Below are positions 4,471-54,877 of a stretch of 64,000 nucleotides of DNA, in pieces. Origin of the DNA: a virus; UHGV virus genome UHGV-0287696; one strand, 5' to 3'. The notes under the pieces were generated by a model. The model saw nothing but the letters and a program-made list of their open reading frames with translations, was not told where the DNA came from and did no database searches. Position numbers and translations under genes: made by a program. How positions within the stretch are numbered: the stretch's first letter is position 1; every line of letters starts with the position of its first letter.

Positions 4471-4476
4471 TCCCTA

Positions 4477-4514
4477 CCCCTTACCCTATACGGTGTAAGG
4501 GGTACTTTTATTTT
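4477..4514 (+). terminator. intrinsic terminator
   Basis: Hairpin CCCCTTAC...GTAAGGGG followed by TACTTTTATTTT. Confidence 0.5.
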
Positions 4515-4536
4515 CATTCCCTAAAGGAGCAGAGTT

Positions 4537-5016
4537 ATGATAAAATTCATTTGGCGTTATCCAACGCGTTTTTGGTTTGTGGTACTTGAACTGTGTATGG
4601 TTCTTGTAGCGGTTACTTTTGTCGAAGCGCCCGCCTCGCAGTTGGCCATTTTCTGCCTTTTCGTGACTGTCCCTGTATGGGTGATTGCGAAGGTTATTAA
4701 GTTCGTCATGGTGTGTTGGGCAAATTATACCTGTCCGTATAAGCCTAAACAAATCATGAAATGGCTGATGTATATTGAAGAACGTTTACCGGCGCAACAT
4801 AAATTACTGGGCTGGTCGTCAATGTTGGATATTGCGCTAGAAACCAATGCAAAGTTCCCCGGTGCGAAAAACCCGTATTTGTTGATGGCGGTAATTGTTG
4901 CACAACAAAAACTGGTAGGCGATCGTTGGTTGCCAGAAGAAGCGAAAGCGTATATCCGTAAACATCCAAAAGCTTTTTACTCGGTAGGACAATGGCGTAA
5001 CTTGCCTTTATTTTAA
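4537..5016 (+). CDS. multi-pass membrane protein (holin-like candidate)
   Basis: AGGAG upstream; two or three hydrophobic helices (FWFVVLELCMVLVAVTFV, LAIFCLFVTVPVWVIAKVIKFVMVCW). Confidence 0.45.
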   Translation: MIKFIWRYPTRFWFVVLELCMVLVAVTFVEAPASQLAIFCLFVTVPVWVIAKVIKFVMVCWANYTCPYKPKQIMKWLMYIEERLPAQHKLLGWSSMLDIALETNAKFPGAKNPYLLMAVIVAQQKLVGDRWLPEEAKAYIRKHPKAFYSVGQWRNLPLF

Positions 5017-5069
5017 CTTTTTACATAACCCTTAGTTGATTTGAACAAACCTAAAAGAGGACTATTAAA

Positions 5070-6005
5070 ATGACTTTTCCATCTGAAGTAATTTACGAAC
5101 TGGCTAACACTCTACGTCGTCACTATAGCAGCAAAATGATGCAAACCCACGTGGGTGCGACTGCTGACTTTTTGCGCGGCCATTTCCTGGGCAATAACCC
5201 ACCGTCGATTACACAGGAAACGGTTTTCTCTATCGATCGTGCCTCCTTAATTCTTCCAATCGACCACGCCATTGCGGTTCAAGAAGGGAATACGTTCAAC
5301 TTCTCTATGGGAATGCGACATTCGTCTAATGTCGTTAACTCAAGCATGGGAAATGACCCGTCTTTCGCACACAACACGCACTCTGTAGAACATGGTAACT
5401 GGTTCGTTGCTGTAGAACAAGGCGTGAATCAGTATGACGTTGTTGCAGCTCGCGATGAGTCTTTCTTTGAGCTGGGACAGATTTCTCGCCGTCGTGAAAT
5501 TGCGCTTGACCTACGTCAAGGTAATATCGGATTAAGTGGGACCAGTGTTTATTTCATCCTGAGCAGTTGGGCACATGTAAGTTACGTGCTGAAAAATGCC
5601 AGTCCGACGTTCCACGCAACGATGGTAGAATTTCGTAGCCTTGATGTAGGAAATCATGACGAAGAAGAAACGGTACCTGGCACAGAAGTCGCCGTCTGTG
5701 AAGACTACGATGATCTGAAATCTGTACTCGTTAAGCGTGATGTTTTCGAATCGTTAAACCTGGATTTCCCCGGTGACGAAAATGAAATATCTGTAGCTGA
5801 TCTGGTAGAAGCGTTGTGTCAGAAAGACCAAGCTAATGAGATCAGTGACGAAGAAGCAGAACTCTTCCAAGTTCAACAACTCGTCAGCAAGGTTATCGGT
5901 GGCCAGGGAATCGTTGACACCCTTATGGCTTTACCACCGAAGAAACGTACTCAGAAGTACATTCGTGAACTGGTTCTTGAAAACCTTGGTCAAACCAAAA
6001 AGTAA
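5070..6005 (+). CDS. hypothetical protein
   Basis: ORF with AGAGG upstream and a hairpin terminator downstream. Confidence 0.5.
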   Translation: MTFPSEVIYELANTLRRHYSSKMMQTHVGATADFLRGHFLGNNPPSITQETVFSIDRASLILPIDHAIAVQEGNTFNFSMGMRHSSNVVNSSMGNDPSFAHNTHSVEHGNWFVAVEQGVNQYDVVAARDESFFELGQISRRREIALDLRQGNIGLSGTSVYFILSSWAHVSYVLKNASPTFHATMVEFRSLDVGNHDEEETVPGTEVAVCEDYDDLKSVLVKRDVFESLNLDFPGDENEISVADLVEALCQKDQANEISDEEAELFQVQQLVSKVIGGQGIVDTLMALPPKKRTQKYIRELVLENLGQTKK

Positions 6006-6013
6006 TTTAAATC

Positions 6014-6049
6014 CCCTACTCCTCCGGGAGTAGGGTTAATTCTTTTTCC
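6014..6049 (+). terminator. intrinsic terminator (CCCTACTCC stem family)
   Basis: CCCTACTCC-TCCG-GGAGTAGGG followed by a T-rich tract. Confidence 0.6.
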
Positions 6050-6066
6050 ACCTTAGGAGTATTAAA

Positions 6067-6618
6067 ATGTTTCCATCGTCTGAATATTTAACTCATCTGG
6101 CTTACGGTATTCGCCGTGGTTCTGTTTTCCGCACACGTTTAAAGGATATAAATTTCCTGGCTAATTTCTTATTTGATCGTTTGTGGGATGGCGATAGTGT
6201 TTACAAAAAGATCACCGTAACACAACTTTATTCCCTTATAGCAGCATCTGAAATTGTGCCTACAGATATTCGTCGATTTAAACGACAGCATAACGGGGAG
6301 GTTACAATCAGCTTTCTTGATCGTTCTCCTATTACCGTTGAAATCGATGATCGTATTGACGCTAATAGTGAAATGTCTGGTTGGAAGATTCTGTTTGATT
6401 GTGGCAATCGTTATGCGGTACTTGGTTCCTCTGATGAGCGCGACTTCCCATTCGACAAACCCTACTACTACCTCAGTGAAGACGATTTCCCGGATAAAGA
6501 ATCCAACATCTTTTTAAACGGAGACACAGTTTACTTCATTTTTCGTACCTGGAACGATGTTGCTGCTATGATTGCTCAAGGCGTCATCGATTACCGTAAA
6601 CTAGAAGTCGACATTTAA
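6067..6618 (+). CDS. hypothetical protein
   Basis: ORF with AGGAG-tattaaa-ATG start context and a terminator downstream. Confidence 0.5.
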   Translation: MFPSSEYLTHLAYGIRRGSVFRTRLKDINFLANFLFDRLWDGDSVYKKITVTQLYSLIAASEIVPTDIRRFKRQHNGEVTISFLDRSPITVEIDDRIDANSEMSGWKILFDCGNRYAVLGSSDERDFPFDKPYYYLSEDDFPDKESNIFLNGDTVYFIFRTWNDVAAMIAQGVIDYRKLEVDI

Positions 6619-9649: not shown

Positions 9650-9653
9650 CACC

Positions 9654-9696
9654 CCCTCCTGTACCCATTCGTGGTACAGGAGGGTCTTTCTTTTTA
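9654..9696 (+). terminator. intrinsic terminator
   Basis: 12-bp stem CCCTCCTGTACC / GGTACAGGAGGG followed by TCTTTCTTTTT. Confidence 0.6.
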
Positions 9697-9739
9697 ACGT
9701 TTGCAACTATTTTAATGTAGACTAACAGGAGAATTCAAC

Positions 9740-14509: not shown

Positions 14510-14998
14510 ATGAACGTAAATGATATTATCAATCTTAGTAAAAGTGATATTGTGCACGAATTTCTCAATCATGGTGCGCGTGTAAGAAAAGAAATTGAAG
14601 AAAAGTTGACCCCAATGGTTGCTTCCACTCCTTGGATGGCAGGATACGCCGCTGCCTACTTCAGTTGCCAGAGCGGAAAAGCATACATAGCTAACCTGTT
14701 TGATTTCTTCAATCCATCAAACGACCACATAACAGAAACAGACGTTCGACAACGCCTTCGCGATTGCCGGTATCAGTTCTTAAGAAATGTTACTGATGCG
14801 TACAATTTAGAGCAATTTCCTACACCGATTGTTCCCTATACAGAACCGGAATGGGAAAATTTTTATAGACGAATTTGGATTGGTGGGTCTTACGTGGCAG
14901 ATATAATGGAAATCATCGAACGTAGCGAAAACCAACTTGCTCTGCAACTATGGGAGTGGTTAAAAGCCAATTATCCTGATTACGTCAAAATCGACTAA
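14510..14998 (+). CDS. hypothetical protein
   Basis: Coupled ORF; terminator follows. Confidence 0.4.
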   Translation: MNVNDIINLSKSDIVHEFLNHGARVRKEIEEKLTPMVASTPWMAGYAAAYFSCQSGKAYIANLFDFFNPSNDHITETDVRQRLRDCRYQFLRNVTDAYNLEQFPTPIVPYTEPEWENFYRRIWIGGSYVADIMEIIERSENQLALQLWEWLKANYPDYVKID

Positions 14999-15004
14999 TA
15001 CACA

Positions 15005-15036
15005 CCCTAGCTTCGGCTAGGGTTACTTTATTTTTA
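15005..15036 (+). terminator. intrinsic terminator
   Basis: CCCTAGC-TTCG-GCTAGGG followed by TTACTTTATTTTT. Confidence 0.55.
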
Positions 15037-15057
15037 ACCATTTTAGGAGAATAAACC

Positions 15058-15984
15058 ATGTATTTGTACAAAAGTAAAAAAGTAAAAGGTATTAAAGACT
15101 GCCTTAGACAAATGGGGTGTCAGCATCTAGAAAATGTCATGGAAGAAAACCGAATAAAGGAAAATCCTGTCTCGAAATGGATAAAAAAGAATCGTAACCA
15201 TTTAACCAATACCTTTATACCCTACGACGCTGAGTTAGGTCTCAAAGATCCCCGTTCCCTTCACGCACAAACATTAGCAATTGGATGGCTATACGGTGGT
15301 GCTTCCTTAATATCCAACCAAGCACTTAGAGAACTTGTTTTCGAAACTGAGATGCCCAGTAAATTCCCTGAAGAATGGTTGGACTTTATTCCTACTTGGA
15401 CTGTGGCAATCGACGTAGGTAAAGAGGATGAGACTTTCTTTCTCGGCTATCGAAAAAACGGGAAGAGAAGGTTTATTATAATTGCTACAAATACTGATTA
15501 CGGGTTAACAGAAGGCGTTACCACAATTGCCACTTGTTCGTTAGAGCTTCGTAGTGCAGGAAACGGGCTTGTGGAAATCGACTATGCCGACGGTGTGGAG
15601 AACGAACAAGAAAAGATGCTATGGTTATCTCTGGCCAAAGCCGCTACTTCGATGATATTTCTGTGCACGCTAATCCCGCCCAATTACAGGGAGTCTTTTA
15701 ATGATATTAAGTTCAAGGAAATCAAAAAGAACGGTAGTATTAGTTACGACGTTAAACCTCGTGAACGCGATGTTAAGATAGATATCACGCCAGGACAAGT
15801 GAATTATCTAAAAGGGTTTAACACTGACTTGAAAACCATGCAGGGTATCAAACATGCTAAGGCTGCCCACATCCGTCGCGCACACTGGCGCAGATATTGG
15901 GTCGGCCCTAGAAATGGTGAAAGAAAAAGAAAACTTTGTTGGATTCCACCTACATTTGTCCGTGGCTACGTACCCCACAATTAA
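15058..15984 (+). CDS. hypothetical protein, tandem paralog A (C-terminal HIRRAHWRRYW motif)
   Basis: AGGAG upstream; shares GW.YG and C-terminal AAHIRRAHW.R.W.G blocks with the next gene. Confidence 0.5.
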   Translation: MYLYKSKKVKGIKDCLRQMGCQHLENVMEENRIKENPVSKWIKKNRNHLTNTFIPYDAELGLKDPRSLHAQTLAIGWLYGGASLISNQALRELVFETEMPSKFPEEWLDFIPTWTVAIDVGKEDETFFLGYRKNGKRRFIIIATNTDYGLTEGVTTIATCSLELRSAGNGLVEIDYADGVENEQEKMLWLSLAKAATSMIFLCTLIPPNYRESFNDIKFKEIKKNGSISYDVKPRERDVKIDITPGQVNYLKGFNTDLKTMQGIKHAKAAHIRRAHWRRYWVGPRNGERKRKLCWIPPTFVRGYVPHN

Positions 15985-16008
15985 GCTAAAGTGTTTAGGA
16001 GTATTAAA

Positions 16009-16908
16009 ATGACAACGAATAATAGACTTTACGGGAAAGCGCTAAGACGCATGAGCGAACAAATAGAAAAGGCACACCAAACAATTCACGGATTAGATCA
16101 GTGCCGCTTTATTCGGTTCATTAACGAGCATAAACGTCAAATACCCGTAACGTTTATACCAGTTAAAGATCCGACCTATCGTGAGTATGGCGTTACCGAA
16201 CAGATCCCCAGACTGATTAAGCAGTCTCTGGGACTAGGATGGCAATACGCTGCTGTTGAAATCATCTCGGATGAAGAACTGATGGCGCTCTTAGCAAAAA
16301 CTGAGAGACTAAAAAATATCCCGTACTTCTGGATAGAAACCATCCCATCATTTACTTTCTCGGTTACTGTAAATCTCGACGAAAGTCCAATCACGTTATT
16401 TATCGGAAGACGTCTTTACGAAGGTGAAGAAGTTCTCTTTGTGATGTCATGCGAAGAACATGACGAGTCGGTATACATGGAGTTTGAGATTTACACGATC
16501 GATAAAAGTAATGATGATTTCGTGGAGTTAAAGCCGCTCCTTACTTCGGTTAAGGAGAATCAACGACTACTCGACGCGGTCTACATCGGGCTATATCTTT
16601 CATCACGAATTAAGCGAACCGAACGCGAGAAGAAAGAATTTCGCGGAAGGTCCATTCGTTATGTTCCTGATACAGAAATTCGCCCACGTAGTGAAGCAGT
16701 CGTTTTAGATGTAAGTCCGGTACAATGGGAAGATATAGAGCAGCAACGCAAGGAAGGACACGAGGTTTGTTTGGCGATTTATTGTGCCGCACATATCCGT
16801 CGTGCGCATTGGAAGCGTGTATGGTGTGGTAAAATGTCAGAAATGCGCTGGCGCGAATGGCGATGGATAGCGCCGAGTTACATTTCTGGATTTTATCGTG
16901 GGAAATAA
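16009..16908 (+). CDS. hypothetical protein, tandem paralog B (C-terminal HIRRAHWKRVW motif)
   Basis: AGGAG-tattaaa-ATG at 16009 (ORF track starts at an upstream GTG, 15991); paralogous to the previous gene. Confidence 0.5.
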   Translation: MTTNNRLYGKALRRMSEQIEKAHQTIHGLDQCRFIRFINEHKRQIPVTFIPVKDPTYREYGVTEQIPRLIKQSLGLGWQYAAVEIISDEELMALLAKTERLKNIPYFWIETIPSFTFSVTVNLDESPITLFIGRRLYEGEEVLFVMSCEEHDESVYMEFEIYTIDKSNDDFVELKPLLTSVKENQRLLDAVYIGLYLSSRIKRTEREKKEFRGRSIRYVPDTEIRPRSEAVVLDVSPVQWEDIEQQRKEGHEVCLAIYCAAHIRRAHWKRVWCGKMSEMRWREWRWIAPSYISGFYRGK

Positions 16909-16926
16909 ATAGTTTACCCCTAGACC

Positions 16927-16966
16927 GTGTGGTCTAGGGGTAACTTTACTTTTTTATTTTTTGTTT
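16927..16966. terminator. bidirectional terminator
   Basis: CCCCTAGACC-GTGT-GGTCTAGGGG between convergent genes. Confidence 0.55.
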
Positions 16967-25970: not shown

Positions 25971-25976
25971 CACCTA

Positions 25977-26014
25977 CCCTACTCCTGACTAGGAGTAGGG
26001 TATTTTCATTTTTT
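25977..26014 (+). terminator. intrinsic terminator (CCCTACTCC stem family)
   Basis: CCCTACTCCT-GACT-AGGAGTAGGG followed by TATTTTCATTTTTT. Confidence 0.6.
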
Positions 26015-26033
26015 ACCCTAAAGGAGAATTACC

Positions 26034-27881: not shown

Positions 27882-28201
27882 TGGTTACGAACGACAATAT
27901 CAAGAAAAAGATTGACGAAATTATAAGCGTCAGTTTAGATAGAATCGAATTAATTCCCGAAACTAAGGAGATCAAATATTACGTTCCTGCGGACGAACTA
28001 TTTCCAGGTCTTCTTAGAATCTCACCAAAAAAGGTTGAAGAGGCTAAACGACAATTCGAAGTTCGTGGCCTTAAGGTTGACATTGTTAACAAAAAACATT
28101 TCCATGTAACGTATAGCCAGGAAAACATTATATTTAGTCCTGAACAAGCGCAACGTAATTTAGATATTTTAACGAAACGAATGGGGAATAATAACAAATG
28201 A
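27881..28201 (+). CDS. hypothetical protein
   Basis: TGATG overlap with the upstream gene. Confidence 0.35.
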
Positions 28202-29232
28202 AACAGTATTTAGCGCTAATGCAAGACATTCTGGATAACGGTGTTGTCAAGAAAGACCGCACAGGTGTAGGGACACTATCTGTATTTGGTCGTCAACTAC
28301 GTTTTGATCTGAAAGAAGGTTTCCCATTAGTTACTACGAAGAAGGTTCACCTGAAAAGTATCATTCATGAACTGTTGTGGTTCTTAAACGGTGACACTAA
28401 CGTGAAGTACCTGCAAGAGAACGGGGTAAAAATTTGGAATGCATGGAGTGATGAAGAGGGGAACTTAGGGCCAGTTTATGGTAAACAATGGCGCGAATGG
28501 CGCGACTGTAAAGTTGTGGAGTGTCATGACGTAAGACGTACACAACAACTAATGCAACGGGGTTACAAGTATATTGGGAATATGAAGGAAGATGGTACGA
28601 CGTATTTGGTTTATGAAAAAGCACATGACCAGATCAGCAAAGTTATCCGACAACTTCGTGAAGACCCTGACTCCCGCCGTATTATCGTTAGCGCCTGGAA
28701 TGTAAGTGACCTGGACGATATGGCACTTAATCCATGTCACGACTACTTCCAGTTCTACACAACGGAAATGACACTGCTTGAGCGACTGGATTGGTACGAA
28801 GCAAATGAACCGGAAAAATTTGCGAACGCGCCACTTATTAATCACGAAGATATTGATGATGAAGAACGACTTCATGAAACTTTAGATCGTGAAGGTATCC
28901 CTCGTCGTAAGCTTTCATGTTTTTACATGATGCGGAGCAACGATGTCGCATTAGGAAAACCGTTCAACATCGCGTCATACGCTCTGCTAACTCATGTGGT
29001 TGCCCAACAAGTGAATATGGTTCCCGATGAGTTAGTTTATAGTGGGGTCGATGTGCATTTATATCTGAACCACCTCGATCAAATAAAACTCCAGTTGACA
29101 CGTGAGCCGTACCCGTTACCTAAATTGGTTATTAAACGTAAACCCGAATCTATCTTCGACTACAAATACGAGGACTTTGAAGTAGTCGGTTACCAATCTC
29201 ACCCACACATCGCCATGCCTGTTGCGGTGTAA
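28198..29232 (+). CDS. thyA: thymidylate synthase (ThyA family) with two insertions
   Basis: Near-identical blocks to E. coli ThyA as recalled: [65 protein letters not shown], active-site [27 protein letters not shown]. Confidence 0.85.
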
Positions 29233-31143: not shown

Positions 31144-31151
31144 ATAAAAGT

Positions 31152-31200
31152 ACCTACCTCCTTTCGGAGGTAGGTAGACTTTCTTATTTTTTTTTCTTTT
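31152..31200. terminator. bidirectional terminator (ACCTACCTCC stem family)
   Basis: ACCTACCTCC-TTTC-GGAGGTAGGT with a long T tract; between convergent genes. Confidence 0.6.
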
Positions 31201-54830: not shown

Positions 54831-54833
54831 AAG

Positions 54834-54877
54834 CTACCTACCTCCTTGACGGAGGTAGGTAAACTTATTTTTTTTGC
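54834..54877. terminator. bidirectional terminator (CTACCTACCTCC stem family)
   Basis: TACCTACCTCC-TTGAC-GGAGGTAGGTA with T tracts on both strands, between convergent genes. Confidence 0.6.

Follow-up and report, generated by a model that had tools for sequence, protein, structure and literature searches.

We analysed two adjacent genes of the virus genome UHGV-0287696, here designated A and B, in a stretch of 64,000 nucleotides that we call the window. Gene A (15058..15984, + strand) encodes a protein of 308 amino acids (aa), and gene B (16009..16908, + strand) encodes one of 299 aa. Both products are established members of the AcrVA2/FinQ family (PF26125), because sequence profiles, the predicted fold and the conservation of functionally required residues all place them there. 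By analogy with AcrVA2, they are probably two effectors with different targets, each silencing specific proteins of the host or of rivals as these are translated. The carrier is a Seoulvirus-related (SPN3US-like), chimallin-type jumbo phage that is associated with Enterobacter. The family name and the presence of the family in huge phages are already known. What is new is that the genes stand in tandem in a Seoul-like clade associated with Enterobacter, that their copy number varies between 0, 1 and 2, and that alleles are exchanged at the level of domains.

Assignment to the AcrVA2/FinQ family

AcrVA2, the founder of PF26125 (crystal structures: PDB 7CI1/7CI2), acts during translation, when it silences a chosen protein through destruction of the corresponding mRNA; it recognises the N-terminal LSKT peptide of Cas12a and lowers the level of cas12a mRNA (Marino et al., 10.1101/2022.11.29.518452). 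The H286A, R288A, and H291A mutants of AcrVA2 lost downregulation and retained target binding, and W79A and D89A had weakened activity. Plasmids and megaphages carry about 1,800 orthologues, mostly without Cas12a in the same bacteria. Its homologue FinQ, a plasmid fertility inhibitor that lowers the mRNA of F transfer genes, has the C-terminal domain in common with AcrVA2 and a different N-terminus (10.1101/2022.11.29.518452). AcrVA2 homologues have been reported in huge phages (10.1101/2022.11.29.518452; PMC7162821), where proteins clustering with AcrVA2 were noted earlier by Al-Shayeb et al. (PMC7162821).

A phmmer search of A against PDB sequences returned AcrVA2 (7CI1) as the sole match (E=1.1e-4). 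The alignment, HTKRPHIRRGHWHGYWQG...VRWQPAVFV in A and HAKAAHIRRAHWRRYWVG...LCWIPPTFV in AcrVA2, lies over the C-terminal motif HIRR[AG]HW..YW.G...W.P..FV. The initial annotation of this locus had assigned the motif to no named family; it is the signature of PF26125 (AcrVA2-like). A profile of 65 family sequences matched AcrVA2 over its full length (1.9e-40). As a control for circularity, a profile was built from 52 family members with the jumbo-phage clade left out. It retrieved A at 4.3e-31, over positions 62-314 of the 321 in the profile, and B at 1.7e-21, matched the AcrVA2 crystal-structure sequence at 8e-42, and matched no other open reading frame (ORF) of the window; no third family copy was found in the 64 kb. 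A profile made from jumbo-phage sequences alone still reached AcrVA2 (1.5e-6), and a PDB search with a profile of the nine closest sequences was weaker than that with the single sequence (0.0037 versus 1.1e-4). The PF26125 annotation is also precomputed for five database homologues (P0001-P0005) that are 63-98% identical to A or B, and it is present on both tandem genes of related contigs.

An exhaustive HMMER search at E<=1e-3 yielded 605 representatives of 50%-identity clusters, most of them 300-380 aa long and matching at the C-terminus, and family members were found in 316 viral contigs. A word-indexed protein search, even when started from an alignment, recovered five close homologues only. 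The PHROGs match is phrog_6160, whose function is unassigned. Nothing of use came from scans against the local Pfam, NCBIfam and PADLOC collections, and the negative Pfam result carries no information because the local copy had no PF26125 model. Weak PADLOC matches of B to Csx19/Csm5 (E about 0.01-0.04) were set aside as chance.

The predicted model of A shares its fold with the AcrVA2 crystal structure (7CI1), which was its sole fold match, and shows no likeness to any nuclease fold. A first AlphaFold model from a seven-sequence alignment was poor (confidence score, pLDDT, 58) and gave no meaningful matches in Foldseek.

Residues were brought into correspondence with AcrVA2 by profile alignment. 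The three residues required for downregulation, H286, R288, and H291, are H271, R273, and H276 in A (H-x-R-x-x-H at 15868-15885, + strand) and H262, R264, and H267 in B (16792-16809, + strand). Regarding the two residues whose mutation causes partial loss, W79 corresponds to W77 of A (15286-15288, + strand) and W78 of B (16240-16242, + strand), and D89 to N87 of A and D88 of B; the A-type orthologues P0002 and P0003 have Asp at this position, although the A of the window has Asn. Among all 65 aligned family members, H271, R273, H276, G283, and W295 (A numbering) are invariant, and W77, P104, P112, W281, and P298 are nearly so. The idea that the basic, conserved C-terminal motif is the functionally important part is supported. 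In contrast, the AcrVA2 residues contacting the Cas12a 620-636 peptide are not kept: E98 is E96 in A and K97 in B, D129 has no aligned residue in either protein, and D195 is A177 in A and L177 in B. Thus, A retains one of three and B none, which is a weak test because this interface was not essential for inhibition according to Marino et al.

A and B therefore resemble AcrVA2 in their whole-length colinear profile alignment, in the C-terminal motif with its three activity residues and the W79 block, and in being borne on a mobile element. They differ from it in sequence, with an identity of only 16-21%, and in setting. AcrVA2 comes from a Moraxella bovoculi prophage, whereas A and B are carried by a virulent chimallin-type jumbo phage of Enterobacteriaceae, as two tandem copies without an acrVA1 or Aca-like (helix-turn-helix) neighbour. 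The likeness to FinQ, which Marino et al. place in the same family, includes the retained C-terminal domain with the HxR motif and the divergent N-terminus; FinQ lowers the mRNA of specific genes of a rival element. This link was drawn from the literature and from the annotation of the phage Special G homologue (see below). FinQ differs in being a single-copy gene on IncI/F-like plasmids of Escherichia coli, where its target is the F tra operon.

Relationship between A and B

The two genes had been described as adjacent paralogues, and in a broad sense this is borne out. BLASTP aligned A and B over 283 positions with 25% identity (81 bits, E=4e-22), colinear from about residue 40 to the C-terminus, and their homology is real and far above chance. 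By region of A, the identity is 26% for residues 1-70, 33% for residues 71-130, which hold the GW.Y block, 13% for residues 131-215, 16% for residues 216-262, and 42% for residues 263-308. Both the common N-terminal GW.Y block and the C-terminal AAHIRRAHW(R/K)R.W.G block of the initial annotation are present, and the middle has diverged as it stated. Its description of the C-terminal block as near-identical holds for a shared core of nine residues, AAHIRRAHW, and is overstated for the 42%-identical region around it. The last 45 residues carry a net charge of +11 in A and +8 in B and contain three and five tryptophans, respectively. In both proteins, the N-terminal and middle regions vary, and the C-terminal part, which is very basic, rich in tryptophan and holds the invariant HxRxxH, is constant.

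The pair may have arisen by an ancient local duplication, as the initial annotation supposed, or by separate acquisition. Neither origin is favoured: A and B (23% identical) are no closer to each other than either is to the single-copy homologues of other jumbo-phage genera (22-30%), and the bootstrap support of the deep nodes in a neighbour-joining tree does not exceed 62%.

Carrier phage and copy number among relatives

The UvsX-like proteins of the window and of Salmonella phage SPN3US are 81% identical. A 12-kb stretch around the locus has 74% DNA identity to SPN3US across 26% of its length, and 83% over its full length to an element of Enterobacter ludwigii (NZ_CP134650.1). The latter was deposited as non-mobilizable "plasmid unnamed1" of isolate 51A:C, from a gull cloaca; it is circular, 222,441 bp long, and has the same gene order as the window, being colinear with SPN3US-like phages as well. 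It is evidently a jumbo-phage genome or episome within a bacterial isolate, and it provides the best clue to the host of the clade. Seoul-like phages encode chimallin (PMC9365700) and frequently persist in bacterial isolates (10.1101/2024.12.31.630880).

A check of copy number in related phages, as the initial annotation had suggested, found none, one or two copies at the locus, which is thus accessory and dispensable. SPN3US has no copy: 62 nt separate gp213 from the convergent gp214, and the family profile gave no match on the 12-kb SPN3US locus. Of 28 Seoul-like phage records, all with UvsX-like proteins at 80-90% identity to that of the window, four carry the gene (EC001, Lh1B, JN03, and SaP7). 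The copies of EC001, Lh1B, and JN03 are nearly identical, and the SaP7 copy is only 40% identical to theirs. The UvsX-like proteins of the Seoulvirus genomes SaP7 and EC001 are equally similar, and their AcrVA2-like genes lie at 219800-220708 of OM456492.1 and 185367-186287 of MN445185.1, respectively. This pattern, with most sister phages devoid of the gene, suggests that alleles at the slot have been replaced within one genus.

One copy occupies the same slot in Erskinevirus (Asesino and ChrisDB) and in Alexandra/AD1-like Erwinia and Dickeya phages, and the slot is syntenic across Seoulvirus, Erskinevirus, and Alexandra-like phages. The single-copy homologues (phrog_6160; for example, Asesino gp235, EC001 MGA_211, and those of SaP7, ChrisDB, and the Alexandra/AD1-like phages) have the same length and motif as A and B. 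As in the window, they lie between a small hypothetical gene and a convergent 251-aa gene upstream of the UvsX-like gene, with flanking terminator hairpins; they differ in being single rather than paired, and their identity to A or B is 22-30%. More distant Klebsiella, Serratia, and Erwinia jumbo phages have one copy at another location, and gp231 of the Erwinia jumbo phage Special G is already annotated as "putative protein FinQ". Twelve metagenomic contigs from the clade of the window have the tandem pair, as does the Enterobacter episome.

Independent pairs exist in unrelated viral contigs. In one of them (L079), about 1 kb lies between two full-length copies, and seven others (L082, L085-L088, L090, and L091) combine a full-length copy with a further ORF, about 118 aa long, whose match is confined to the C-terminal module. 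These short ORFs, at 6244-6597 of IMG/VR contigs from metagenome 3300045988, match profile positions 243-308 (E about 4e-18), and each could be either a stand-alone effector module or a remnant.

Recombination of modules

In a sliding comparison of DNA from two related contigs, L007 and L003, the identity is 56-79% over codons 1 to about 214 of A and 94-100% from about position 15700 of the window through B and beyond. Conversely, the window and L007 are 90-98% identical through A and only 51-74% identical through B. The synonymous divergence (dS) between L007 and L003 exceeds 1 in codons 1-215 of A and is about 0.1 in codons 216-308. The ratio of nonsynonymous to synonymous divergence (dN/dS) in A peaks at 0.3-0.56 in codons 131-215 and is lowest, at 0.02-0.07, in the C-terminal third. 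Gene A can accordingly be divided into a variable module, which contains W77 and is the proposed target-recognition part (codons 1 to about 214; 15058..15699, + strand), and a constant C-terminal module, the proposed effector part (15700..15984, + strand). The allele boundary coincides with the junction in the predicted model between long helices (183-211) and a C-terminal beta-rich domain (220-301).

Amino acid identities to the window were compared by module across 11 related contigs. Residues 1-214 of A fall into two alleles (57-60% or 90-96%), residues 215-308 are 93-95% identical in all 11, and B again falls into two alleles (61-62% or 97-98%). The 162-aa gene directly upstream of A is 44-48%, 67% (L014) or 91-93% identical, and 42% in L015; the short contig L009 does not reach it. 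The three modules (the 162-aa gene, residues 1-214 of A, and B) assort independently, and recombination among co-circulating phages has exchanged the variable part of A independently of B, which is swapped whole.

The 162-aa gene (14510-14998) belongs to no Pfam or PHROG family. At its position, contig L006 has two 161-aa genes in tandem (4941-5941). The 162-aa gene may be another arms-race gene.

Proposed function and alternatives

In the reading that we favour, the variable part of each protein would, by homology with AcrVA2, bind a specific polypeptide emerging from the ribosome, and the C-terminal HxRxxH module would then trigger destruction of the corresponding mRNA; the target would never be made. 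The two paralogues would have two different targets, the likeliest being proteins that belong to host defences or to rival mobile elements, rather than Cas12a. Their site of action would be the host cytoplasm, because ribosomes lie outside the phage nucleus. The guess of the initial annotation that this is a host-interaction or anti-defence locus is a reasonable one, and it fits both a family whose sole mechanistically characterised member is an anti-CRISPR (AcrVA2) and which also includes a fertility inhibitor (FinQ), and the accessory, fast-recombining nature of the locus. More tentatively, in chimallin-type jumbo phages, whose DNA is already hidden from nucleases, the exchangeable cassettes might be programmable translational silencers, in which the N-terminal two-thirds sets which nascent protein of the host or of a rival element is recognised, HxRxxH destroys the mRNA, and two cassettes widen the range of cytoplasmic defences that are neutralised. 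If so, these defences might include RNA-targeting or abortive-infection systems, and the two alleles of the variable part of A together with the two of B would be ready material for specificity swaps.

Several points weigh against translational silencing by A and B. The mechanism is transferred from a protein with an identity of only 16-21%, and the way in which AcrVA2 itself destroys mRNA is not yet worked out (PMC13131331). The structural model is that of A. In addition, the low dS in the C-terminal third of A is a product of past recombination as well as of constraint, and we therefore only infer that the variable part determines specificity.

The family and fold that A and B have in common with AcrVA2, together with the retained residues for mRNA downregulation, could also indicate true Cas12a anti-CRISPRs that are functional orthologues of AcrVA2. 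We regard this as very unlikely. The sequence identity is low, and the Cas12a-peptide contacts are replaced as described above. The related episome sits in Enterobacter, and Enterobacteriaceae are not known as carriers of Cas12a. Moreover, most family members reside in bacteria without Cas12a (Marino et al., 10.1101/2022.11.29.518452), and the DNA of chimallin-type phages is already protected against CRISPR systems that target DNA (PMC7162821). Less probable than the favoured reading, yet a more serious candidate than Cas12a inhibition, is a FinQ-like role as weapons against co-resident plasmids, prophages or superinfecting phages, which would be useful in long persistent infection. The effect of FinQ on F-plasmid transfer-gene mRNA, the FinQ annotation on a jumbo-phage homologue, the frequent persistence of Seoul-like phages in isolates (10.1101/2024.12.31.630880), and the deposition of a relative as an Enterobacter "plasmid" are in line with such a role. 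However, it differs from the favoured reading only in the proteins silenced, and the turnover of alleles suits both kinds of target.

The position of the pair between exonuclease/RNase H genes and the UvsX-like recombinase gene, and the synteny of the slot across Seoulvirus, Erskinevirus, and Alexandra-like phages, would suit housekeeping RNA- or DNA-processing factors of the replication and recombination module. We consider this improbable, because the gene is dispensable, being missing in SPN3US and in 24 of the 28 Seoul-like records, and because its alleles turn over, as between SaP7 and EC001, where they are 40% identical in otherwise near-identical genomes. The free recombination of modules and the lack of similarity to nuclease folds argue in the same direction. 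Dispensability and allele turnover speak equally against virion structural proteins, an outcome that the initial annotation had named as contrary to its interpretation and that now appears hardly credible. Nothing was found in favour of it except a virion-structural annotation on some genes close by in relatives; the homologues carry the label hypothetical, and AcrVA2 is the only fold match.

AcrVA2 is so far the sole case in the bacterial world in which a nascent polypeptide is recognised and its mRNA is destroyed. The locus is of moderate interest as a handle on this poorly understood mechanism. With two paralogues, discrete alleles of the presumed specificity module on an unchanged effector module, and relatives with zero to two copies, it constitutes a natural test set that could reveal new targets and probe whether the N-terminal part sets specificity. 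Through translational silencing by A and B, the possible repertoire of nucleus-forming phages would extend to a counter-measure that works in the cytoplasm at the level of translation. For annotation, the label "AcrVA2/FinQ-family protein" can take the place of "hypothetical protein" at this slot in genomes of the Seoulvirus-, Erskinevirus-, and Alexandra-like phages.

Gene boundaries and flanking hairpins

As initially annotated, each gene has its own ribosome-binding site, AGGAG at 15046..15050 (+ strand, read directly from the sequence) for A and TAGGAG at 15997..16002 (+ strand) for B. The start of B is most likely the ATG at 16009 and not the GTG at 15991, because TAGGAG ends six bases ahead of the ATG, the GTG has no Shine-Dalgarno sequence, and the database homologue P0004, which is 98% identical to B, is 299 aa long.

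The pair is closed, again as annotated, by its own terminator, a bidirectional hairpin with a 13-bp stem at 16914..16943 (no strand assigned) between B and the convergent 251-aa gene, which is kept in relatives. A further terminator-like hairpin at 15004..15023 (+ strand), with an 8-bp stem, a TTCG loop and a T-rich tail, is kept upstream of A in related contigs; it ends the preceding gene and separates the A-B unit from it. Because terminator-like hairpins stand on both sides, A and B form a two-gene unit. A scan for sigma-70 promoters found fewer sites than in shuffled sequence, and none inside the 59-nt gap before A.

The hairpins that flank the AcrVA2-like cassette are alike (in Asesino, GTACCCACTCC in both), and SPN3US, which lacks the gene, retains the downstream hairpin only. 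These hairpins may serve as sites for the gain and loss of a cassette of hairpin, ribosome-binding site and gene. Similar punctuation recurs between genes of the window as a GC-rich hairpin, often with a CCCTA...TAGGG core, followed by a T-rich tail and a ribosome-binding site within about 30 nt; examples are at 4471-4536, 6006-6066, 9650-9739, 14999-15057, 16909-16953, 25971-26033, 31144-31200, and 54831-54877.

Neighbouring genes

The window also contains multi-subunit RNA polymerase beta-like genes and genes for a tail sheath, a 2374-aa tail-fibre/transglycosylase protein, thymidylate synthase, RNase H, an exonuclease, and the UvsX-like recombinase. Ten proteins neighbouring A and B fall into PHROGs families of unassigned function or into those of the exonuclease, RNase H, and UvsX. 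None of the ten has a Pfam domain above threshold or a helix-turn-helix domain, and neither other acr genes nor an Aca-type regulator adjoin the pair.

The thymidylate synthase (ThyA) ORF at 28198-29232 encodes 344 aa. Its match to phrog_160 takes in the entire ORF, spans profile positions 33-308 and leaves about 70 residues in excess, and a second ThyA family covers only residues 237-344 of the ORF. The thyA gene of the window may carry an internal insertion.

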